This document shows positions 1-10,428 of a DNA stretch of 64,000 bases, piece by piece. The position numbers were made by a program, and so were the translations under genes. This DNA is from Candidatus Latescibacterota bacterium. GTDB lineage: Bacteria; Latescibacterota; UBA2968. Every line of letters begins with the position of its first letter. Positions within the stretch are counted from its first letter, which is position 1. A model generated the notes under the pieces. That model had not been told where the DNA came from. It worked only from the letters and a program-made list of their open reading frames with translations, and did not search any database. Location: the NCBI GenBank assembly GCA_965208125.1, contig OZ242320.1, positions 736,001 through 800,000 of the forward strand, written 5' to 3'.

Positions 1-227
1 CCTCGCAAACGAATAGCCCGTTTCATATCCTCAATAGAGACCGGCTTAGAGGGGGGGGGCAAAATACCTTTCAAATCTCGGACATCTCGCAGATTCGATT
101 TTATAACCACATCTCCATTGTTTTGAATAACAATATTCAATCGGTCTCCTGGATGGAGGTGTAGATACTCCAGTACTTCTTTGGGCAAAAGCAGGTGACC
201 ATCTTCTTTGAGCATTGTTTCAGCCAT
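1..227 (-). CDS. AbrB/MazE/SpoVT-family antitoxin (3' end runs off the window)
   Basis: Translated by hand (absent from ORF track): MAETMLKEDGHLLLPKEVLEYLHLHPGDRLNIVIQNNGDVVIKSNLRDVRDLKGILPPPSKPVSIEDMKRAI...; AbrB-type G-x-L-x-LPK...L-x-PGD pattern; RBS AAGGAGGT upstream of ATG 227. Confidence 0.8.
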   Translation of the reverse strand, partial: MAETMLKEDGHLLLPKEVLEYLHLHPGDRLNIVIQNNGDVVIKSNLRDVRDLKGILPPPSKPVSIEDMKRAIRLR

Positions 228-428
228 AGTGAACCTCCTTCGTTTCTGCTGCAAAATTTGCTTTTCTTTCATCATTTCGGCAAGCGTGAGACTGTATTTC
301 TTCTGAGAAGAAAATTTAAGGGACTGACCTTAGAAAGTCAATCAATGTTCATATTAGGGAACCCGACCGCCCTTCACGATGTCTAATACCGTAAATCGTT
401 ACCGCGCCCTACAAAAAGGAGCGACCCA

Positions 429-1208
429 ATGCACACCAGATGGTTTTTCCCCTTCGCTCTGTTCCTTACTGCCTGTATAGGCCCGTTAGACCCGAACAAT
501 TCCGAATACATTGAAATCAGGGAAATAACCATCGGTCCTGCCCTGGCCAGATGCTACGGCGTGGGCGAACAGACCTGCATGATCGTTGACGGCTCATTGT
601 TCTACGACGGCATAGAGGGCTTCAACTTTGAAGCGGGCTACAACTATCGTCTGCGGATCGGCAAATACGACCCCTATGATGGAAAGGAACCGCCGCAGGA
701 TGCCAGCCAATACAGTTATCGCCTGCTGGAACAAATAGAAAAAACCCGCGCGCCATCCACTCCGACAACCATATCTGTGGGACCAACGCGGGTAAAATGC
801 ACGCAAATCGACGACTTTTGCCTGCTGATTAACGGTGCGCCCTACAACGACATCATCACCCACTTCGATTACGAAGCCGGGTATCACTATACCCTCAATG
901 CAAACCAGTACAGCGACGGGCGATACGTCTTGACTGAAATAGTCTCAAAAACTGAATTAACGGGCACAGAAGAAGAAATAACCGTAGGACCCCACAGAAC
1001 CCCATGCGGCGCCGTGTACTGCAACGTCGTCAACGGCGAAGCCTTCCTCAGTGAAATCGTGAACTTCCAGCCCCGGCACAACTACAGCTATCGCCTGCGA
1101 GTCGAACGATTCGACATGTTTTCCAGTAGCACAACCCCGCCGTCATCCAACATCCCGACCTACGGCTATCGCTGGCTGGAAACACTTGAGCAGAGCATCA
1201 ATAATTGA
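429..1208 (+). CDS. Lipoprotein with three DUF4377-like repeats
   Basis: Lipobox LTAC; three units of the form ITIGP..C....C..V.G..FY..I..F.FE.GY.Y.L; RBS AAGGAG. Confidence 0.75.
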   Translation: MHTRWFFPFALFLTACIGPLDPNNSEYIEIREITIGPALARCYGVGEQTCMIVDGSLFYDGIEGFNFEAGYNYRLRIGKYDPYDGKEPPQDASQYSYRLLEQIEKTRAPSTPTTISVGPTRVKCTQIDDFCLLINGAPYNDIITHFDYEAGYHYTLNANQYSDGRYVLTEIVSKTELTGTEEEITVGPHRTPCGAVYCNVVNGEAFLSEIVNFQPRHNYSYRLRVERFDMFSSSTTPPSSNIPTYGYRWLETLEQSINN

Positions 1209-1244
1209 TCCGCATCTGAGAAGTCTTCTGAGAACTATTAGATC

Positions 1245-1375
1245 ATATCAGTGAATTTGTGGTTATAACTTTCTACAGGATATTTCTTCAAGAAAAGAGC
1301 CCCAGAATTGCGTTTGTCATTGCGGCATGATTTTGAGCCGCAACCCATTGGGAAGTTGTAATCTAAACTAATTCC
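1245..1375 (+). repeat. Left arm of long imperfect inverted repeat, with REP-like hairpin GTCATTGCGGCATG..TTGAGCCGCAA
   Basis: 1269-1343 matches the reverse complement of 7950-8024 at 59/75 positions without gaps (hand alignment); weaker similarity continues on both sides. Confidence 0.85.
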
Positions 1376-3541
1376 CTAACTGGACTCCGCTTTTGACTGT
1401 TTACGCAACTCATCAATCTGCTGGCGGTCCTCACGTTCCTGGTCAGGTGTGTAGCTGGACCATAGCTGGCTATATATCTCCGCGACATAATCCTCTAACT
1501 CTGGGGACAGCTTTCGTTTGCTATCTACCAAGGCGAGTAGTTTTAATACCAAGATTTTATCAGCACGGTCACGCTGTCTCAGCGGAAACGCGCTGATCGC
1601 TATTGCAGTCTGCTCAGCCTCATCAATCGCGTCTAACAAGAGCCATAGCTGGCCCCAAAAACGCAGTGCTTCAAGGTTGAATTGCCCTCCATCACCAAAA
1701 CGATCCGAGGCGATGTGGATGATTTCAGGAATGATCATCTCGTCGTAGTGTGTATCTATCTCACCTTCGCGAGTGCTCTTAAGCTTTCGCTGGTCAATCA
1801 GAGCCCATAAGGCACAAGGTCCGACTCCCGAATCGCGTGCTTGATCCAGCAACCATGCGCCACTCGGATCGCCAAACTCAGCGGCATAGCGGGCCGCACG
1901 TTCTTCTACGATCGAGGCTTCGGTGCGGATAGATAGGTACTGTCCAGCGAAATGGGAGTGCCTCCACAGAGTCTCGGCGAGAGTGCGAACCGCGACAGGA
2001 TCAATTGTACGTCCGAGTTCTTTTAGCACTGGAATCGCGTGGAACGCGACCAAAAACCAGTGTTGCACGGCTCGGTCAGCGGTAATGAAAGCTTTGTAAT
2101 TCTCCTCAGCATCCCACACACTCAGCGACAATCCCCGACACTGAGCCGAGGCCCAACTCGGTAGATCAAGTTCCTCGCAAGACATGGCAAGAGCCGTGCC
2201 AAGGCCATTGATCCACTCGCGGTGGTGCCATTCACTCCAGTGCAAGAACAAATGGTTGCGTTCCAACTCCTCAGCAATGTGCTGATCGTGCAACTCGAGA
2301 GTTATTCGAGCGATCTCAGCGGCTCGCGCAGGCTCCAAATCGCGGATCTCCCAGGCAACATCCGCCAAGTGGCGGAGCCAAGTCGTTCTCCGGGTCAGGC
2401 GTAGGCCAGCGCGAAGTTCAACAAGCAGATCGTCGGACCAAGACTGGCGAACGAGGCGTGCGAGCAGTTCTGTGCCTGCCCTTTCAAGCTGCTCAATTCG
2501 GAGCGGCTTCTCCTGGCCGCCACCGTAGTGTAGCCCATAGGAGGCATGGCTGAGCAGTTCGCCGATCCATCGTGCGCACACCAGTGGATTGAACGCAGAT
2601 AGACGGTCAACTAAGCCTGTGAGGAGGCCTGCTGCTGCAATATTTAGGCCGTCGTCATCCCGCGGAATGCGGAGTTCCGTACTCCAATAGTGTTGATTTT
2701 GGTCTGAGCCCAAACGACTGGCGACCCGTAGATCGTCATCCAACTTGTTGACGGTGTTCAGCGTATGGTTGATCGCCAGCGCAATCAAGGCATCGCATGA
2801 ATCCTCGGTGATCCACTCCAAAGTCTTGCGGTAGTCCACTTTTAGGGCTACGGCGACCATGTGGTCAGCCGCCCGCGCCTGCACTACTGGATGATCCAGC
2901 ATCTCAATCAGGGATTCGAATAGCTCGGACCGCAATTCGACCACAAGTTCGATCAGATTGTCTACCGCACGATATAGTCCCCAATTGACTAAGTCGAAGT
3001 CATTGTCGAAATTCCGGAAGATCTCCAGCATCCCCTTGGACTCCATTTCTTTTTTTTTGATCTTGGCTTTGAAAAAATCTTGCGCTGCAAAGCCGGTATA
3101 GCGGGAGGGTTCAAGAACCTCGTCTTGTTCACAGCGCTCCTTTAGCATAGCAAGTGCGGCCTCGACAAACGAGTCAATCTCCTCAGAAGACCAGCAAGAA
3201 CGAATGATGCGTGCAGCCAAGTCGGCATCAATCGAGCCGATGGCCCAGATTGCGGTTTCCGAGCGAGCCGCCTTGATTTCCTCTAAGATCAGGCCTGCAA
3301 CCGGCTCACTCATATCAGACTTGAGCCATCGTTGATCTTCATGAGAATCGAACCACCCTCGGATTTCCGTGATGGCTCGATTCTGCTCGGTGCGGGAATT
3401 AATATGCTTTCGGATAATCGGCTCAATCAGTTCGTAAGTTGACCGGCCTGTTAGAGGCGATTCACCAGAGCCGAAGATCCGCCAGATAATGGCTTTTGCT
3501 TCGGCAGATAGAGAGATATTGGGTATGCTGTTGTTGGACAT
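1376..3541 (-). CDS. Hypothetical helical, Trp-rich protein (~721 aa), translationally coupled to the upstream gene
   Basis: Long ORF; likely start MSNNSIP at 3541 overlaps the upstream stop (TAATG). Confidence 0.8.
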   Translation of the reverse strand: MSNNSIPNISLSAEAKAIIWRIFGSGESPLTGRSTYELIEPIIRKHINSRTEQNRAITEIRGWFDSHEDQRWLKSDMSEPVAGLILEEIKAARSETAIWAIGSIDADLAARIIRSCWSSEEIDSFVEAALAMLKERCEQDEVLEPSRYTGFAAQDFFKAKIKKKEMESKGMLEIFRNFDNDFDLVNWGLYRAVDNLIELVVELRSELFESLIEMLDHPVVQARAADHMVAVALKVDYRKTLEWITEDSCDALIALAINHTLNTVNKLDDDLRVASRLGSDQNQHYWSTELRIPRDDDGLNIAAAGLLTGLVDRLSAFNPLVCARWIGELLSHASYGLHYGGGQEKPLRIEQLERAGTELLARLVRQSWSDDLLVELRAGLRLTRRTTWLRHLADVAWEIRDLEPARAAEIARITLELHDQHIAEELERNHLFLHWSEWHHREWINGLGTALAMSCEELDLPSWASAQCRGLSLSVWDAEENYKAFITADRAVQHWFLVAFHAIPVLKELGRTIDPVAVRTLAETLWRHSHFAGQYLSIRTEASIVEERAARYAAEFGDPSGAWLLDQARDSGVGPCALWALIDQRKLKSTREGEIDTHYDEMIIPEIIHIASDRFGDGGQFNLEALRFWGQLWLLLDAIDEAEQTAIAISAFPLRQRDRADKILVLKLLALVDSKRKLSPELEDYVAEIYSQLWSSYTPDQEREDRQQIDELRKQSKAESS

Positions 3542-5235
3542 TAGCGAATTTCCCGAACAAGAAGGCGTGTGGTGGTGCCCCCAACGGTCATTGCCCATAG
3601 CGACTTCGCTTCGGCGCGATAGATGCCATAGGGAAGACCAGCAAATGTAACTCCATCTTTGGGCCAGCCGTTGAGGGAGTGGGTGATGATAATCTCGCGT
3701 CTAGGTGTTATGAGATAACGATCGTGAAATCCAGGCGTGCCATCGTGCTTACGGAACGCCCGAACACTGACATGAGCCGTCAGGTGGTTAGGGTAACTCG
3801 ACCACCATGGTGACACATTGTTGTTATCCTTTTGTGTGCATAGGATACGCAAAGGACGGCCAGTAGTGGCAGCAAACATATCGAGGTATAGCTGTGTGCC
3901 TCTATTTCCCTTCAAACGGCCCATGAAATAGGGATCGGCTAAGTAGATCGGTTCCGTACGATCAGCATCTTGGCGCAGAAGATTAATGAAGTACTGGATT
4001 GCCTTATTGAGTTCGTCGGGGCCGAAGCGTGCAAAATTGCCTTCTCTGCGTACGGCAGCCTCTCGTTCGTGAACCCGACGATCAAGCCATAGTCGCCGGA
4101 TCCCTTTGTCGAGTTCGGCGCTATCTCGGTCGGACTGAACGTTGATTGTGGAGACCGTAGATGGATTGACACTGTGGGTGAAATGGCTTTTGCGTTCACG
4201 GAGATGTAGCGTTGGGCCAGACTCGATCTCCATGGAGACGGCGACTGCCATGACAAGAAGTACCTCCATCAAGTCAACACACTGTCCGTCACTAGTTCGG
4301 TAGATCTCAAAGCCAATATGATCTACATCCGAGGCGAGTTCGATCACGGTCTCGCCCAGCATAACCGAAACTTCTCGCCGAAGCACCTCGTCACCACTGT
4401 GGCTGGCCCAGACTGTGGCACGATAGGCCCCGGGCAGCAGTTCGTCCCCGTCCACCTGGAACCTAAGCGTTCGGTCATGACGCGCTACCAGATTGCAGGT
4501 AATCGCATCTTCTGCACCCGCAATCATGAGATTTCCGATCCGATCCGGGCGACGGTCGAGTGGGAAGCCCAGATGTGCGAGTTGAGGTAGCGCGTTGCCC
4601 TGGAACGATCCGATTACCTCGAGCCAGCGTTTGTGAGGCTCCGTCTTGAAACTCCAGTACTCGATAATCTCTGCACTGTATTTTGTGAACGGGCTACGCA
4701 TTGAGGCATCAGAGAGCGGGCGATCATCTCGATAGGCCCAATGTAGGCGGGGATTGGGTTCCAAGCTGTAGTGAACTTCAAGGCCATCTATCTCCAACGT
4801 TCCTGAATTCAAGATGTGATCAACCAATGCCTGACAGCACTCAAACGATGTATCGAACGTAAATAGCCGAAGTTCATGGCCAAGATCTTCGTTAGACCAG
4901 GTCTCATCCGGTTCGTTAGCCCAAGGCCCCAGCGCATCTTTCCGTCGGTGGCGTATGAGCGTGAACAGGTTGCAGGGCTGTGCGCCCGGATTCTGCCATG
5001 CTAGTACCGTCATCCGAGCGGTTCGATCCTTCATGTCCTCTTTTGTCACCGAGGCGCGAGTCGGTGAAACGAAGGAAAGCCCGCGTTCACGCGCCCAACG
5101 CACCGCTTCGTCGAGTGCTACAGACACATTGCGCCCGTTCCTTTGCACAGTCAGGTGCTCCCGGTGGATATGCTGGCGAACGTAAGTCTCGCTCTTATCC
5201 ACGGCCTGGGCTAACTCTGCAATAGTAAAATTCAT
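3541..5235 (-). CDS. HTH + PLD-like nuclease-domain protein (resembles the VPA1262 family)
   Basis: N-terminal excisionase/MerR-like HTH (FTIAELAQAVDKSETYVRQHI); C-terminal YLADPYF...FHDRYLIT...THSLNG, a degenerate PLD-type motif; RBS GAGGT. Confidence 0.65.
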   Translation of the reverse strand: MNFTIAELAQAVDKSETYVRQHIHREHLTVQRNGRNVSVALDEAVRWARERGLSFVSPTRASVTKEDMKDRTARMTVLAWQNPGAQPCNLFTLIRHRRKDALGPWANEPDETWSNEDLGHELRLFTFDTSFECCQALVDHILNSGTLEIDGLEVHYSLEPNPRLHWAYRDDRPLSDASMRSPFTKYSAEIIEYWSFKTEPHKRWLEVIGSFQGNALPQLAHLGFPLDRRPDRIGNLMIAGAEDAITCNLVARHDRTLRFQVDGDELLPGAYRATVWASHSGDEVLRREVSVMLGETVIELASDVDHIGFEIYRTSDGQCVDLMEVLLVMAVAVSMEIESGPTLHLRERKSHFTHSVNPSTVSTINVQSDRDSAELDKGIRRLWLDRRVHEREAAVRREGNFARFGPDELNKAIQYFINLLRQDADRTEPIYLADPYFMGRLKGNRGTQLYLDMFAATTGRPLRILCTQKDNNNVSPWWSSYPNHLTAHVSVRAFRKHDGTPGFHDRYLITPRREIIITHSLNGWPKDGVTFAGLPYGIYRAEAKSLWAMTVGGTTTRLLVREIR

Positions 5236-5269
5236 AGTGGTTACCTCAGTATCTATGTGGTCGCTTTAG

Positions 5270-5315
5270 TAATTGTAACATATTGTAAATTACAAATGTA
5301 ACTTACGCACGTCAA
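5270..5315 (-). promoter_or_regulatory. Sigma70-type promoter overlapped by palindromic operator-like sites
   Basis: TTGACG (5315-5310), 17 nt, TAATTT (5292-5287); palindromes TTGTAA-A-TTACAA (5283-5295) and GTAA-C-TTAC (5298-5306). Confidence 0.6.
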
Positions 5316-5535
5316 GTATTTTTTTCATCAGTTGCACCTGTAACTTGCTCATCTGGTCCGATCTCCTCAATATGGAAAGTCCTAACAGGTCATCAGTCAT
5401 CTCTACCTCAATACCGAATGGCGGTCTGTAGGATGCTGTTTTATTTCCCTCTCTACCGCTGTTGATCAGATGCAATCAGGCGTTGCTGATAGTGAAGAAA
5501 ATAGCAGTTTCTGTACTGGCCGGTGTGGCTTTCAT

Positions 5536-5574
5536 AAAACAAAAGGGGCGTCGGAGATACTCTCTCCGACGCCC
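5536..5574 (-). terminator. Intrinsic terminator after the three-gene module
   Basis: 12-bp stem GGGCGTCGGAGA/TCTCCGACGCCC followed by a T-rich tract on the minus strand. Confidence 0.8.
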
Positions 5575-5626
5575 GGAACACTCGCCCATCTAAGCCAAAA
5601 ACCACAATGACCTCGATCCGCTACAC

Positions 5627-7003
5627 CTATACGGGTAGCCGTCCCACTCGGTCAGACAAACCGTCAATCTGGTTCACAACACGCTCCAGTGCCTCAATTT
5701 CCTTCTGCTCTACCTCTCCCCAGAGCTTCAGGTTTCTGTCCAACAACGCCCATTTGAGAGCATGAGAACCGTTCCATATAAACCCAATCCACGCCGCGTA
5801 GTTCAGATTAAGGATATCCTTGGTGATGTACACCTTGGCTCCATTCACCGATGCCATTGTTCCATAAGCCATAGCGAGCATCATCCTGAAACGGGGATTC
5901 ATCTTCAGGGGCATCGTATCCATCAGAGCTTCCCCCAGCGACGCGCCAGCGCACTTCACCTGTTTGACAGCGTAGAAGACGCGCATCATCACCTCCATAA
6001 TCAACACGGGAATACTGGTTACGACAAACTGACGAAAGTCGTACCCCTTGACGTACATATACTCGATCTGTTTGCCCAGATCGGAATCTCCCACTGGGAG
6101 GCTGTCAAACATGCGAAGGAAACCCATTAAGGGAGCGGGTAGCCCCATGCCCCTATTGCCTTTTGCAGAGGGGGCATTAACATCGGACAGAAGATGTCCG
6201 AACAGGCGACCAAGCAGTTGGAACAAGCTGCCACCCACAGGTTCCTTTGTAGTCTGGTAGATATTGAGTCCACCGTTCTCAATTACCGTGCATGTGCCGC
6301 GCTGCATATCCAAAACGCCGAATAGAAACCCAAGAATGGGATCGTGAGATAACGACCGCAACCGATGGTTCATGGGATTCAATGTACCCGGCAGTGCCCC
6401 CAGTAGCTGAGCCACAGTGCTGGAGTCTGCACCGCCAATAGTGTTCAGCCTACCGAGTTCCTTGCTAATATCGGGCGGTAACAGGCTGTTGAATGCCTGC
6501 TGTACCCACTTGTTGAACACGCCATCCACCTCCTTAGTCCATTCGGTGGTCGGCTTAGCAGGAGCCTTCACGAACAGCAGGTCAAGCATCGCTGCGAACA
6601 GGCCGCATCCCCCAGCAATGGCATAATCCCACCCATCAAGGGCGTAGCGGGCGTTGAAGTCCTTAATATAGGCAGCTATCCGCTTATCCACGATCTTCCA
6701 ATCGCCTGCAGTCAGGATATCGTCCAGTTTGGCATCCTCCGGATACGCCGCCTCTGCCTCATTGTATATGGTTTCCGAGTCAACGGCCGGGAGTGACCTG
6801 TGCTCGCTCATCGCGTCAAGATGCGCCTGCTTTCTCTCCACAAAACCCGACGATGACTTGTCAACATCGCCCAGTTTCGACAGTTGTCTTTTGATAGAGT
6901 GAATGTCCCTATTGATCTCGTCATGTGCTTCCTCAATGGTTTCAGACCGCTGTTGCAGATGTCTGATGGCCTTAATAGTCCGTTGTTCGTCCTTGCTGGT
7001 CAT
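5627..7003 (-). CDS. Hypothetical protein with N-terminal coiled coil and hydrophobic segments
   Basis: 458-aa ORF; motifs WDYAIAGGCG, HRLRSLSHDPILGFLFG, GMGLPAP; several hydrophobic helices. Confidence 0.8.
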   Translation of the reverse strand: MTSKDEQRTIKAIRHLQQRSETIEEAHDEINRDIHSIKRQLSKLGDVDKSSSGFVERKQAHLDAMSEHRSLPAVDSETIYNEAEAAYPEDAKLDDILTAGDWKIVDKRIAAYIKDFNARYALDGWDYAIAGGCGLFAAMLDLLFVKAPAKPTTEWTKEVDGVFNKWVQQAFNSLLPPDISKELGRLNTIGGADSSTVAQLLGALPGTLNPMNHRLRSLSHDPILGFLFGVLDMQRGTCTVIENGGLNIYQTTKEPVGGSLFQLLGRLFGHLLSDVNAPSAKGNRGMGLPAPLMGFLRMFDSLPVGDSDLGKQIEYMYVKGYDFRQFVVTSIPVLIMEVMMRVFYAVKQVKCAGASLGEALMDTMPLKMNPRFRMMLAMAYGTMASVNGAKVYITKDILNLNYAAWIGFIWNGSHALKWALLDRNLKLWGEVEQKEIEALERVVNQIDGLSDRVGRLPV

Positions 7004-7014
7004 GACAATACCTT

Positions 7015-7488
7015 CTATGGCTTTTGATGTTTAAATTGGTCAATGTAAGCCTTGATTTCTGCCAATTCGTCGCGGAAATACTCAGCATTCGCAATAAGCC
7101 GTTCTTGGATTTTGTAGAGTTTCTCAATAGCTCTGTCCAATGCCGCCGCCAGTTTCGCACTCCTCCGCTTCTTGACGATGGCATAGCCACCAACCCCCAA
7201 GATAGCCACCGGCAATGTCAGGACACCTATTCCGGCTAGCATTCCGGCACCGAAACCTGCCGCTGCCAACCCGGAGGTGATACCGGCGGCCGATAGGCCC
7301 GCCACAGATCCTCCGAAATAGAGGGCAGTGAAAGATGCAGAACCACCCAGCGCAATGCCCACTACTGCTCCAGCCGCATCGGCTGCCTTTGGTTCGTCGC
7401 GACGGAGTTCATCAATCGTCTCCTTCATATCTTCGTGTGCTTCGTCCTTCATCCGCTGGATCTCTGCGGGGCTAAGTTCTCTTCCCAT
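7015..7488 (-). CDS. Glycine-zipper membrane protein with C-terminal coiled coil
   Basis: 157 aa; GLSAAGITSGLAAAGFGAGMLAGIG; RBS AGGAG. Confidence 0.8.
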   Translation of the reverse strand: MGRELSPAEIQRMKDEAHEDMKETIDELRRDEPKAADAAGAVVGIALGGSASFTALYFGGSVAGLSAAGITSGLAAAGFGAGMLAGIGVLTLPVAILGVGGYAIVKKRRSAKLAAALDRAIEKLYKIQERLIANAEYFRDELAEIKAYIDQFKHQKP

Positions 7489-7524
7489 GATTATCTCCTA
7501 TCTTTGCGCCAGAAATATCTTCTA

Positions 7525-7869
7525 CTACTTTTGGCGTTTAAGTTCATCAATGTAAGCCTTGATCTCAGCCAGTTCCTCACGGAAGTGCTCGGCGTTCGCA
7601 ATAAGCCGTTCTTGGATTTTGTAGAGTTTCTCAATGGCTCTGCCCAGTGCCGCCGTCAGTTTCGCTTTCCTCTCCGTGTCCATCCGCTTCTTAGCTATGG
7701 CATAGCCAGCAACCCCCAATGGCCCTGTCAGGAGAGCCACGCCTGCCGCAGCTACCACATCAACCACCTCTGGGAAGTCGCGTTGGACTTCATCAAATGC
7801 TTCCTTTATTTCTTTCTGTGCTTCGTTCTTCATCCGCTGGATCTCTGCGAGGCTAAACTCGCTTTTCAT
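7525..7869 (-). CDS. Tandem paralog of 7015-7488 lacking most of the glycine zipper (114 aa)
   Basis: Start MKSEFSLAEIQRMK with the same AGGAGATAATC-ATG leader; shares AEIQRMK and RAIEKLYKIQERLIANAE.FR.ELAEIKAYID. Confidence 0.75.
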   Translation of the reverse strand: MKSEFSLAEIQRMKNEAQKEIKEAFDEVQRDFPEVVDVVAAAGVALLTGPLGVAGYAIAKKRMDTERKAKLTAALGRAIEKLYKIQERLIANAEHFREELAEIKAYIDELKRQK

Positions 7870-7914
7870 GATTATCTCCTTTCTTTGAGGAGAGTCTTTG
7901 TTTGTCAAGGTGCA

Positions 7915-8052
7915 GGAGGAGTTGCGTTTGAGGTCAAACCCCATGTGGATTGCAGCTCAAAACCATGCCGCAATGACAGGTGCAATTCTGTAGTGCCTCT
8001 CTCAGAGAAATATAATGTAGAAAGCCATATACTTCAATCTCATTAACTGATG
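7915..8052 (-). repeat. Right arm of long imperfect inverted repeat
   Basis: TGGATTGCAGCTCAAAACCATGCCGCAATGACA plus flank is the reverse complement of the 1269-1348 region. Confidence 0.85.
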
Positions 8053-8365
8053 TTACGCAAAAACCACTGCAACAGCCACCTGGTCAAGCGATACATATCT
8101 TTCACATAACCGCTCATTCATCGCTCAAAATATACACTTTTTCCGCCGACATTTGTGCTCCTCCACCTCCGCTTCAACAAACATTCCACAAATTCAAGTT
8201 GTGAATAAGACCGCAATACTACATATTGAAAGCATAATGAGGTGCCTGAGTTTCTTAAAAGCCCCTTTTATCGCTCAATTCTGTGATAATTGGCCTGATA
8301 TTTGCTTGAGTTCTGACTGTTGCGTTTGTCCAAAATACGACCAACCCTCAGACCAGGCATCTCAC

Positions 8366-9286
8366 ATGGCAGAATTTGATACGATTTCTAAACACCTCAT
8401 TCAGAAATATCCCGACGACTTTGCCGGATTCACTCTCGGACGCGAGGATGTTGAAGTTCTTGCAGTCATTGACACAGAGCAATACACTGTTGAAGCACGC
8501 CAGACCGATAGCCTGATTCGCGTACGTATGGATGACGAGGAGGTATTGGTCCACAACGAGTTTCAAACGACTGACAGCACCAATCCTCCTATGCCACGCC
8601 GCATGGCGGGCTATATCGGACGCGCGATTGAGCATCACGGTCTGCCGATCTATTCCAATGTCATCTACCTGCGTCCCAATGCTGGGCAGCACGATACCGG
8701 GTACTATGTCCAGGAGCATCTCGACTACGAAATCACGATTCGGTATCGCGTGATCAGACTGATTGAGATAGAAGGCGAGCACGTTCTGGAATCGGGGCAA
8801 TCGGGTCTGATTCCCTTCACACCGTTGATGAAGTCCCCTGAAGGGATGGCCTCGGATGCGTGGTTGCATCAGTGTATTCACACGGCTCGAACGCACCCCA
8901 TCGCTCGGTCATATAGGGCGGATTATCTGGCTGGCATGGTCGCCTTGAGCGAATTGGTATATGAGTCTGAAACGATTTCTGGTATTATTTTCAAGGAGGG
9001 TATCATGGATCTGATCCGCGAATCATCACTTTTTCAATCCCTTACTCAACAAAGCAGAGAGGAAGCCAGAGAGCAGGGCCTGGAGGAGGGCATTGAGCAG
9101 GGGGTCATGCAACGTGCCATCGAAGATATTCTCGAAGTGTTAGAGGTTCGATTTGACCTGAGCGAAGCGCACCCCCTATCCACACGTATTACCGCCATCG
9201 ACGATTTGCAACGCCTCAAGCAATTGCACCGTGCGGCAATACAGGTGCCCAATCTCGAGGCATTTCAGCGTGTGCTATATGCGTGA
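8366..9286 (+). CDS. Rpn-family recombination-promoting nuclease / PD-(D/E)XK protein
   Basis: MAEFDTISKHLI...RQTDSLI...HNEFQT...MPRRMAGY...NVIYL; C-terminal EQGLEEGIEQG repeats and DUF4351-like tail. Confidence 0.85.
   Translation: MAEFDTISKHLIQKYPDDFAGFTLGREDVEVLAVIDTEQYTVEARQTDSLIRVRMDDEEVLVHNEFQTTDSTNPPMPRRMAGYIGRAIEHHGLPIYSNVIYLRPNAGQHDTGYYVQEHLDYEITIRYRVIRLIEIEGEHVLESGQSGLIPFTPLMKSPEGMASDAWLHQCIHTARTHPIARSYRADYLAGMVALSELVYESETISGIIFKEGIMDLIRESSLFQSLTQQSREEAREQGLEEGIEQGVMQRAIEDILEVLEVRFDLSEAHPLSTRITAIDDLQRLKQLHRAAIQVPNLEAFQRVLYA
9005..9286 (+). CDS. Putative internal in-frame small protein (RpnS-like, 93 aa)
   Basis: AAGGAGG immediately upstream of an in-frame ATG at 9005 (MDLIRESSLFQ...). 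Confidence 0.6.
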   Translation: MDLIRESSLFQSLTQQSREEAREQGLEEGIEQGVMQRAIEDILEVLEVRFDLSEAHPLSTRITAIDDLQRLKQLHRAAIQVPNLEAFQRVLYA

Positions 9287-9348
9287 TATGATTTCCATAA
9301 GCCTGACGAGATATTGGGACACTGCGTAACATCAGTCAGTAATATGAA

Positions 9349-10428
9349 CTACGAAAACGCCTGACTCAAATTCTTTCGATGTAAAATGAACCAGATTACA
9401 ATCGGCGCGCCAATCAGGGACGTCACTGCATTCAGCGGCAAAACAAATTGACTACCCGGCAAATGGGCGATCAGATCGGATAGCAGTGCCAGCGTCGCCC
9501 CCAGGCAAGTGACCGCAGGCATAAGCACGCGGTGATCCGACGTATGCAACAGACTGCGACAAAGATGCGGCACAGCCAGACCCAAAAACGCAATCGGACC
9601 GCAAAAAGCAGTCGTTGCGCCCGCCAGAATCGACGCACTAACCAAAATCCACAAGCGAATGTGCTTGACATTCAAACCCATACTGCGCGCATAATTTTCC
9701 CCCAGCAAAAGCGCATTGAGCGGCTTAATACACAAAAACGCCAGCAAAAGCCCCAGAAAAATTGCACATATAAGCACAGGCATCTGTCGCCAGGTCACAC
9801 TGCCAAAACTGCCAAAAGTCCACAAAATGTACGACTGTATCTGTTCGGGAACGCTAAAATAAATCAAAATACTGACAAAAGCTCCGGTCGCATACCCGAA
9901 CATCAGCCCCAAAATCAGCAACGTCATCACACTCTGCACACTGCGAGACACCAGCAACACACAACCCAACACAGCGGCTGCACCCATAATAGCCGCAACC
10001 GCCAAACCCAAATCGCCCAGAAAACCCAACCCCGCGATAAGCGCACTACCAACCGCCCCCACCGTCAGCACCACAATAGCAACGCCGAGACTCGCGCCGG
10101 CACTGATACCCAGCACAAAAGGATCCGCCAGTGGATTTCGGAAAAGCGTTTGCATCTGCAACCCACTCACAGAAAGCGCCGCGCCCGCCAGCACAGCCGT
10201 AATCGCCTTTGGCAGCCGAATCGAATGAACAATAATCGCCCATGCAGGAGAAGACACTTCTCCACCCGTAAGAATGCCAAACAAGGCCGCCAATGGAATC
10301 TGAACTGACCCCAGCGACAAACTCAAGCCGAACGCGATCAGAAGCAGCAGAAATAACCCCGGTATAATAACCGGGTACCGCGATCTCCCCTGCGCTTCAT
10401 CTTTGTATTGAGCCTCCATCCCGATCAT
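9349..10428 (-). CDS. btuC: Cobalamin/iron ABC transporter permease (FecCD family)
   Basis: IRLPKAITAVLAGAALSVSGLQMQTLFRNPLADP; LLLGENYARSMG; GPIAFLGLAVPH; B12 operon context. Confidence 0.9.
   Translation of the reverse strand: MIGMEAQYKDEAQGRSRYPVIIPGLFLLLLIAFGLSLSLGSVQIPLAALFGILTGGEVSSPAWAIIVHSIRLPKAITAVLAGAALSVSGLQMQTLFRNPLADPFVLGISAGASLGVAIVVLTVGAVGSALIAGLGFLGDLGLAVAAIMGAAAVLGCVLLVSRSVQSVMTLLILGLMFGYATGAFVSILIYFSVPEQIQSYILWTFGSFGSVTWRQMPVLICAIFLGLLLAFLCIKPLNALLLGENYARSMGLNVKHIRLWILVSASILAGATTAFCGPIAFLGLAVPHLCRSLLHTSDHRVLMPAVTCLGATLALLSDLIAHLPGSQFVLPLNAVTSLIGAPIVIWFILHRKNLSQAFS

Follow-up and report, generated by a model that had tools for sequence, protein, structure and literature searches.

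A rare REP-bearing inverted repeat at the borders of a strain-variable island in a Latescibacterota genome

How does a block of defence-type genes come to lie between two inverted copies of a repeat of its host, with no transposase between them? The question is raised by a 6.8-kb stretch (positions 1245–8052) of the genome of Candidatus Latescibacterota bacterium (assembly GCA_965208125.1, contig OZ242320.1). The window analysed here is 64,000 nucleotides long and corresponds to positions 736,001–800,000 of this single-contig 5.75-Mb genome, called G000 below. The stretch is framed by two arms of an inverted repeat, each with a hairpin resembling those of repetitive extragenic palindromic (REP) sequences. 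A sequence-only reading of the window had proposed that the arms enclose an island, and that they are either the ends of a cargo element mobilized in trans or the remains of a palindromic loop that captures cassettes. Defence islands are usually found without visible means of arrival; here copies of a host-specific repeat mark both borders, the site is unusually tight, and clean empty alleles occur in sister species and even within one sample.

To judge from the genomes of relatives, the 6.8-kb stretch is the core of a strain-variable insertion (1209–9348), located where two core genes converge, in the few bases that separate their stop codons. The reading tentatively preferred, held at somewhat less than even confidence, takes the arms as boundary copies of a rare, REP-bearing 3′-untranslated or intergenic element that came with the block; the block would be gained and lost by ordinary recombination, and a unit with an Rpn-family gene would have been added later. 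The comparison covers 21 genomes of the genus, G000 and 20 relatives; arm patterns were also sought in a collection of species-representative genomes (pattern scan) and in two scans of JGI metagenome contigs, and four metagenome runs, X1, X5, X6 and X12 among them, were compared as assembled contigs.

The arms and their rarity

A repeat search finds two arms of 84 nt which are 77% complementary (Table 1). A direct count of 1269–1343 against the reverse complement of 7950–8024 gives 59 matches in 75 positions, and 12 of the 16 mismatches are transitions, just as had been read from the sequence. The hairpin motif matches the window twice, as opposed to none in 100 shuffled sequences, and the DNA folding energies of the two hairpins are −8.1 and −5.4 kcal/mol. 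Both arms point inward and carry the hairpin at their inner end. They are close to the cargo genes, with 28 nt between the left arm and the stop codon (1376) of the last gene and 76 nt between the right arm and the likely start of the first. No match was found in an Rfam search of positions 1–10,000 of the window at E ≤ 1.

The proposed extension of each arm to roughly 130 bp is borne out only in part. A gapped alignment of six arm copies reaches ~1241 and ~8055, giving ~105 nt, and 130 bp is not reached; the outermost parts are the least conserved in this alignment. Ungapped 20-nt blocks beyond the arms match at 6–8 of 20 positions, which is the chance level, and the similarity of 1209–1263 to the outer side of the other arm is not significant in local alignment (422 of 2000 shuffles reach the score). 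The segment 1209–1263 was also considered as a relic of an end of the Rpn unit and rejected, as the score is reached by 1289 and 422 of 2000 shuffles.

The full arm is rare. In a search of each arm against the whole 5.75-Mb genome, the other arm is found at E 1.2e-11 over 79 nt, and all the remaining matches are to the ~32-nt hairpin core. The outer ~47 nt are common only to the two arms, their orthologues in the records of three relatives, and one solo copy in a sixth genome. Among the 21 genomes of the genus, full-length arm matches occur at the syntenic locus only, two in G000, two in G013 and one, the left arm, in G005. Among the species-representative genomes, the scan met the G005 and G013 contigs again and added one further copy at the same locus (L051) and one chance match lacking the hairpin, while the two JGI scans gave 0 matches. 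Since the outer ~47 nt are confined to the arms, their orthologues and the solo copy, the pairing is not one expected by chance from an abundant repeat, and the full arms are rare homologous copies. L051 is a 3.4-kb contig of a metagenome-assembled genome with the same junction of DUF4377 gene, arm and 740-aa gene. Its record is titled “uncultured Rhodothermaceae”, although the junction is that of this Latescibacterota-type locus, which is probably due to a binning error in the record.

The solo copy, found in G006 and the only one among the 21 genomes, has a degenerate hairpin and is located between the stop codon of an HTH_3 gene and the terminator of that gene, beside gidB/mnmE/yidC. At the same site G000 has ~45 nt of unrelated sequence. 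Because of this copy the arm is taken to be a low-copy intergenic element of ~85–105 nt that is able to stand alone. In all three of its contexts the arm is co-oriented with a gene and placed just downstream of it: the left arm follows the DUF4377 gene, the right arm follows fecCD in the form of the locus that lacks the Rpn unit, and the G006 copy follows the HTH gene.

Orthologous arms are 88–90% identical, similar to the flanks, while left and right arms are 72–79% identical, both within and between genomes, and their longest exact shared run is 15 nt. The divergence between left and right exceeds that between orthologues, and therefore the duplication of the arm predates these species. On these values the arms are not undergoing homogenization and have diverged too far for efficient homologous inversion.

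Empty sites and the extent of the insertion

The insertion is flanked by genes for a DUF4377 protein and a FecCD-type permease, both of which read towards it. The DUF4377 gene is conserved in 11 relatives up to base 1206/1208. The site is empty in 11 of the 20 relatives, with 1206/1208 joined directly to 9349/9354; nine of these are G003, G004, G006, G007, G008, G014, G015, G017 and G019, and the other two are G011 and G020 (1206 to 9354). Junctions were read in nine genomes and contain 0–11 bases between the flanks. Six of the nine consist of ..AATAATTGA, five bases (AGCCC, AGTCC, AGTTC or AATTC) and CTACGAAAACGCC..; the stops overlap in G014 and G004, and the spacer of G006 is longer, ~11 bases. 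No direct repeat indicative of target-site duplication is present at 1208/1209 and 9348/9349. Upstream of fecCD, six relatives contain different DNA, and the 12–13 kb examined shows no homology to the arms or to Rpn; in G012 the contig ends at the locus.

The empty sites of the relatives place the boundaries of the island at 1209–9348 and not at 1245–8052. In this genome, therefore, the arms do not enclose the island as had been supposed: its true boundaries, 1208/9349, leave 32–55 nt outside the left arm and 1.3 kb with a nuclease gene outside the right arm. Compared with the scarless empty sites, arms and cargo are present or missing together, as a single block.

Changes inside the island of relatives are plain deletions that ignore the arms. 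G013 retains both arms and is without 2518–5531 and one copy of a small gene, while in G005 position 2176 is joined to 8070, so that the right arm and the Rpn repeat are lost. Metagenome contigs (X1, X5) also show the empty joint 1208→9349, with AGTCC, AGCCC or AGTTC in between. In run X1 this joint has a depth of 167, as opposed to 4–6 for the island contigs, which are identical in sequence to the window; since X1 is possibly the source sample, these contigs do not count as independent evidence for the island.

Carriers of the island do not form one clade in the flanking-gene trees, where G000 groups with empty-site genomes and a separate pair is made up of G013 and G005. Between G000 and the empty-site genome G007, the DUF4377 gene is 97–100% identical over its final ~530 nt (690–1208), up to the junction, while the other ten genomes show 86–96%; the right flank has no such high-identity tract. 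The tract reflects a recent recombination that ends at the heterology of the island edge, and fits either an exchange between carrier and non-carrier or a site-specific gain or loss.

Table 1. Features of the island and its flanks (window coordinates)
Feature	Position	Strand	Basis or remark
Left flanking core gene, DUF4377 protein, reads towards island	429..1208	+	Pfam PF14302, E 7.2e-24
Whole segment missing from empty sites: arms, cargo, Rpn unit	1209..9348	.	Alignments of relatives, junctions, metagenome contigs
Left arm of inverted repeat	1264..1347	+	Repeat search; gapped homology outward to ~1241
REP-like hairpin core of left arm, GTCATTGCGGC..GCCGCAACCC	1316..1346	+	Motif search and fold
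740-aa protein, last gene of module A	1376..3598	-	Open reading frame
564-aa protein, first gene of module A	3541..5235	-	Open reading frame; ribosome-binding site and ATG seen
Terminator-like hairpin with T run, separates modules	5546..5574	-	12-pair stem, then CTTTTGTTTT
BnzB-like protein, 458 aa, module B	5627..7003	-	PADLOC PDLC03834 BnzB, E 5.7e-51, profile positions 37-488 of 504
157-aa glycine-rich hydrophobic/coiled-coil protein, module B	7015..7488	-	PADLOC BnzA, E 1.5e-14, profile positions 305-412 of 544
114-aa protein, module B, paralogue of 157-aa protein	7525..7869	-	Likely ATG at 7869 behind AGGAG site
Right arm of inverted repeat	7946..8029	-	Repeat search; gapped homology outward to ~8055
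REP-like hairpin core of right arm, GTCATTGCGGC..GCTGCAATCC	7947..7977	-	Motif search and fold
Promoter-like site TTGAAG-17-TATATT facing Bunzi-like operon	8009..8037	-	Weak consensus match
Left inverted repeat of Rpn unit	8037..8059	+	Pairs with 9323-9345
Rpn-family nuclease gene, 306 aa from ATG	8366..9286	+	Homologue names and sub-threshold model match
Right inverted repeat of Rpn unit, 3 nt from insertion end	9323..9345	-	Pairs with 8037-8059
Right flanking core gene, FecCD-type permease, reads towards island	9349..10428	-	Pfam PF01032, E 1.9e-75

Origin of the borders

According to the preferred reading, the borders would be old, diverged copies of the rare ~85–105-nt intergenic element, whose inner end is one of the 64 REP-like hairpins of the genome. 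Each arm would sit just downstream of a flanking gene and point the same way, and the pair would be inverted because each arm is co-oriented with its own converging gene. REP elements act as transcript-end stabilizers, and by analogy the arms may be hairpin-bearing 3′-end or insulator pieces for the two converging flank transcripts, which would show how the island is tolerated between converging genes. For the Bunzi-like operon, the right arm may in addition contain the leader and perhaps the promoter. Exchange across the conserved flanks, together with internal deletions, would account for gain, loss and trimming of the block, and the Rpn-family gene with its own inverted repeat would have joined later as a separable part. 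The arms are accordingly not read as active recombination sites.

Recombination at the locus is evident from the deletions in G013 and G005, from the G000/G007 flank tract and from the carriers not being one clade. Hallmarks of transposition are missing, since there is no target duplication, the left arm is set back 32–55 nt from the edge of the insertion and conservation is lowest at the outer arm tips. The orthologues are closer to each other than left is to right, with no shared run above 15 nt, and nothing in this indicates that the arms pair or turn over.

Several observations weigh against this reading. Two inverted copies of so rare an element at both ends of one indel have the look of a composite element, and the origin of the symmetry of the arms is left to history. 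The arm hairpins lack a T run, the consensus RNA fold of the six arm copies supports the hairpin only (covariation term +0.86, with no covariation outside it), and the promoter-like site is no better than chance, 1 being found where 1.4 are expected in shuffled sequence, and so is no evidence by itself. The co-orientation with genes rests on three cases and fails for the hairpin cores at large: an orientation set by the neighbouring gene was looked for and not seen, the gene orientations around 45 cores being split 14/12/11/8. As far as the junction itself, the left flank of G000 has its closest counterpart in an empty-site genome; this is not predicted by a simple import through flank recombination and would be explained by site-specific insertion or excision. 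Finally, the spacer of the empty sites is short and similar (AGCCC, AGTCC or AGTTC) across many lineages, and repeated loss would therefore have to be scarless.

The hairpin of the arms belongs to a dispersed family. In G000, 64 intact-stem copies of its core, GTCATYGCGGC-loop-GCCGCRATCCAG, are present (30 on the + strand and 34 on the − strand), and the core is matched in 17 of the 21 genus genomes, with nothing conserved family-wide beyond ~32 nt. The copies are concentrated at 0.7–3.3 Mb, about one per 40 kb, and are singles or direct clusters; of the 12 neighbour pairs less than 10 kb apart, 10 are direct and two convergent (6.6 and 9.5 kb), and relatives carry direct tandem arrays. The orientation of the core tracks the replichore, with 20 copies on − and 3 on + at 0.70–2.02 Mb, and 16 on + and 0 on − at 2.09–2.60 Mb, the flip coinciding with the minimum of cumulative GC skew at ~2.0 Mb. 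The left arm is among the few copies that oppose their own replichore. Orientation of a repeat by replichore is characteristic of single-strand HUH transposition. Apart from the island, G000 has just one convergent hairpin pair below 10 kb, at 1,346,656 (+) and 1,356,137 (−), and the site of the Rpn unit of G008 lies between its members. Other repeat families occur in the genome beside the core hairpins: GC-rich hairpins of the GTAGGGG type, with the heptamer present 227 + 225 times, purine-rich runs of the GAAGTG type, and a CTGGACTCC...GGAGTGACGA hairpin.

Like REP families, this one has a short imperfect palindrome as its core, tens of dispersed intergenic copies and a distribution limited to the genus. 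In REP-associated tyrosine transposase (RAYT) systems an inverted REP pair is described as a unit, the REPIN (PMC3337134, PMC3116915). REPIN doublets are 60–70 bp apart, while the copies here are singles or direct clusters, and the pair at the island is 6.6 kb apart and shares extra sequence beyond the core. RAYT-linked REPs begin with GTAG at the 5′ end, whereas the core here starts with GTCAT and a separate GTAGGGG-type hairpin family is present in the genome. Co-occurrence of a RAYT gene had been suggested as a test, and none is evident in the genome. Its only Y1 transposase genes (PF01797; G000 positions 1,107,427 and 552,558; L021 and L022) belong to two IS605-type TnpA+TnpB pairs, each adjoining an OrfB_IS605/TNB gene, and no GTCAT-type hairpin is found within 450 nt of either. 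In Pseudomonas, strain-specific DNA is reported to tend towards REP deserts (PMC3390384), while here REP-bearing arms border the island.

The rival that survives best, unlikely though far from negligible, treats the arms as the functional ends of a non-autonomous composite, in which two copies of a small REP-derived element bracket the cargo and everything is moved in trans by an enzyme with its gene elsewhere, be it a Y1/HUH transposase, an Rpn-type nuclease or another one. It would be similar to the TIME-COMPs, described as composite elements bracketed by MITEs (miniature inverted-repeat transposable elements; PMC13367494). As in MITE-bracketed composites, two small non-coding copies bracket passenger genes with no transposase between them, and the small element also occurs solo, as a small indel at the unrelated site in G006. 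Integron mobilization units and mobile insertion cassettes are comparable bracketed elements. The composite would also account for the placing of rare homologous copies at the two ends of a block whose presence varies as a unit, for the carriers scattered in the flank trees with the G000 flank nearest to an empty-site genome up to the junction, for scarless empty sites and for a hairpin family oriented by replichore and flipping at the GC-skew minimum. However, the block is at the same site in every carrier, and the paired arms with different cargo or at a second locus which this idea predicted were found neither in the 21 genus genomes nor in the species-representative scan or the two JGI scans. 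In contrast to MITE-bracketed composites, there is no target duplication, one site is known, and the arms stop short of the insertion ends, with 32–55 nt of island DNA beyond the left arm and the outer tips least conserved. Moreover, the arms are 23–28% diverged without concerted evolution, the deletions in relatives ignore them, and no partner enzyme is evident, the two Y1 genes being IS605 TnpA+TnpB with other hairpins; within G000, no other sequence matches the outer arm, as the matching ends of an autonomous partner would. Of the proposal that a REP pair forms the ends of a cargo element mobilized in trans, what stands is that rare homologous arms travel with the cargo, and the single site and the lack of target duplication and RAYT speak against the rest.

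If the arms do act in movement, REP-type repeats would be linked to the transfer of cargo, and arms mobilized by an enzyme in trans would amount to a transposase-free route for moving defence cassettes. In its boldest form this idea is a long shot: the arm would be a REP-derived mobile end, a pair of which carried 6.8 kb of defence genes between converging stop codons with the help of an enzyme in trans, perhaps Y1/HUH because the hairpin family is replichore-oriented, and the Rpn unit, with its terminal inverted repeat and its scarless presence or absence, would be a still-mobile member of a family so far seen as eroded relics.

It is improbable, to about the same degree, that the repeat is a by-product of the formation of the block, by inverted duplication of ~100 nt around a REP hairpin through template switching at the hairpin or repair of a nuclease break during joining of the cargo, and functionless since. 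Arms that are unique to the locus and older than the species splits (72–79% between left and right, 88–90% between orthologues), the absence of covariation outside the hairpin and the presence of a nuclease-family gene next door would agree with it. On the other hand, the solo copy in G006 shows a dispersed element and not a local one-off duplication, and one carrier is without the Rpn gene, so that Rpn need not have been present when the block was formed.

Still less probable is that a palindromic REPIN-like element, arm beside arm, once lay between the two genes and that its loop captured the cassettes, the second route proposed from the sequence. The arms face inward with the hairpins innermost, like the halves of a long palindrome, and the Rpn unit is similar in miniature, its 14-mer ends being found in this genome also as two tight inverted pairs, spaced by 28 and 89 nt, that enclose no gene. 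The empty form with adjacent arms, which had been put forward as a check, was seen in no genome or contig, and non-carriers that keep both flanks have a bare short spacer. The hairpin family is also without inverted doublets, since all but the two convergent ones (6.6 and 9.5 kb) of the 12 neighbour pairs are direct and relatives have direct tandem arrays.

A chance pairing of two ordinary REP copies 6.6 kb apart in opposite orientation is hardly credible, for although the core is common (64 copies), clustered at 0.7–3.3 Mb and found in 12 neighbour pairs below 10 kb, the ~47 nt outside it are shared by the arms and present in no other copy in the genome, at E 1.2e-11 against the whole genome, and this explanation was rejected.

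Cargo genes and the Rpn unit

All genes between the arms are on the − strand and form two transcription units, a Bunzi-like operon (module B) and an uncharacterized module A of two genes. The description of the island as transposase-free holds inside the arms, where no transposase family is found in Pfam or NCBIfam, and needs qualifying for the insertion as a whole, which contains, 337 nt outside the right arm, a gene of the Rpn “recombination-promoting nuclease/putative transposase” family.

Module B combines a strong BnzB match with a small, apparently membrane-type partner whose sequence fits the BnzA profile over part of its length. In these features it is similar to Bunzi, but the partner is short (157 aa for a profile of 544 positions) and duplicated. 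The genes for the 114-aa and 157-aa proteins are tandem duplicates, contained in direct repeats (7007–7506 and 7514–7887) of 79–89% DNA identity, and their products are 46% identical (E 5e-35). The upstream 114-aa copy has lost ~45 residues of the hydrophobic stretch, and in G013 and run X6 the small BnzA-like gene is not duplicated. The published Bunzi TerB protein has membrane helices and a lipid-binding domain (10.1101/2022.05.11.491447), yet no TerB family is found in the cargo proteins with Pfam, and for this reason module B can be called “Bunzi-like” at most.

The 740-aa and 564-aa proteins of module A match no family at threshold in Pfam, NCBIfam or PADLOC. The 564-aa protein has a sub-threshold match to VPA1262_N_dom (25.7 bits, the cut-off being 80), and the best Protein Atlas scores, 0.87 for the 740-aa and 0.85 for the 564-aa protein, are weak leads only. 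A pair with 64% DNA identity to it is present in G028 (contig C14, 8126–11964; L047), whose genome is of another family; there the neighbours are of defence type, with genes for an IrrE-type peptidase, a DUF4411 protein and a PD-(D/E)XK nuclease, and no long inverted repeat surrounds the pair. A 306-aa open reading frame next to this homologue was considered as an Rpn relative and is not one. The 564-aa and 740-aa genes are a candidate portable two-gene defence module. The terminator between the modules and the occurrence of module A in G028 without a long inverted repeat indicate that the two modules are independent units.

Defence islands at core-gene hotspots are described as variable blocks between conserved core genes (PMC10121019). 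The locus resembles them in its variable defence-type block between core genes, its empty sites in close relatives and its module-wise content, and differs from them in the long inverted repeat of a host-specific element at the borders and in the short spacer between converging stops. As a defence island it is ordinary except for its borders. In the collection of papers searched, none joins repetitive extragenic palindromic sequences, inverted repeats and defense island.

The part of the insertion beyond the right arm contains the Rpn unit, whose left repeat begins 8 nt outside that arm. The terminal inverted repeat is 23 nt long and 83% identical, with 14 nt perfect, and none of 2000 shuffles reaches its score. 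The gene is preceded by a leader of ~320 nt which is conserved among paralogues. Proteins 82–83% identical to its product are named [quoted passage not shown] by their source. The protein itself is below the family cut-off (TIGR01784, 23 bits as opposed to 52.1), and Pfam Transposase_31 is matched by one of 16 aligned relatives, at E 0.035.

The structural model of the protein has a pLDDT of 79. Its residues 1–135 align best to McrC (Z 7.3), NucS (6.0) and AF1548 (5.7), and further to R.BspD6I (5.3), a XisH-like protein (5.3), AspBHI (5.0) and Can2 (5.0), all below the caution line of Z 8. The best-aligned structures of this modelled N-terminal domain are PD-(D/E)XK nucleases, at middling Z. 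A Foldseek search of the model against the PDB gave no match at E ≤ 0.001, and PDB sequence searches with the protein and its profile returned nothing below E 0.39.

The family has nine tblastn matches in G000, the window copy included, at 44–100% identity; six are near full length and three are fragments, and each relative has many. Rpn units occupy sites of relatives at which the G000 flanks adjoin, such as that of the G008 unit at G000 1,348,830/1,348,860, 30 nt apart. Six Rpn copies in the genus begin with (T)TAACTGATGTTACGCA, and the one in G009 also has a matching right end of 13 nt by eye. No inverted repeats of at least 14 nt are reported at the ends of five other Rpn units.

The relation of the unit to the arms is seen best in run X12. 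Contigs of equal depth (182–204) chain the DUF4377 gene, the left arm, the cargo and the right-arm hairpin, and fecCD (9354) follows ~92 nt beyond the hairpin. The contigs break inside the repeated hairpin, and the chain rests on depth and overlap. The X12 population thus appears to carry the arms and the cargo without the Rpn unit. If the chain is right, the arms there are close to the island ends, 32–55 nt from the left one and a few tens of nt from the right one, as the sequence-only reading had them, which is not the case in this genome. The Rpn unit appears to be a later, separable addition to the island, and with its terminal repeats and its variable presence between close relatives it looks like a mobile or recently mobile unit.

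Rpn (YhgA-like) genes likewise occur as several sporadically placed paralogues per genome, and their products have a nuclease-type N-terminal fold (PMC5350276, PMC10400941), which the model of the present protein may share. The unit differs from the described family in matching its models below the cut-offs, in its 23-nt terminal inverted repeat and in its conserved 320-nt leader. Kingston et al. suggest that Rpn proteins may be eroded ancient mobile elements, inserting independently at the same position (PMC5350276); the main text of that paper contains no mention of “inverted repeat”, and the papers searched gave no description of Rpn genes with terminal repeats as insertion sequences. The question of Rpn/YhgA-like mobility was left open in the 2017 paper by these authors, and an Rpn-family gene with terminal inverted repeats that varies between close relatives provides a concrete substrate for testing it. 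The terminal repeats on this gene are the most testable lead from the locus.

Rpn units or their fragments are located less than 100 nt from a hairpin repeat at two of the nine G000 matches (7947–8037 in the window and G000 1,417,252–1,417,814). In G002 (L020) the hairpin directly abuts a truncated Rpn leader, and the G000 sites that match the Rpn-unit sites of G002 and G015 contain the hairpin repeat.

The 14-mer of the Rpn-unit ends is also dispersed in G000, in four exact copies (0.04 expected) and ~10 with one mismatch (~1.8 expected). Its sites include 689,289; 2,719,863; 2,734,659/2,734,687; and 5,455,997/5,456,086. Two sets of copies are the tight inverted pairs mentioned above, and solo copies head at least two other small repeat families.

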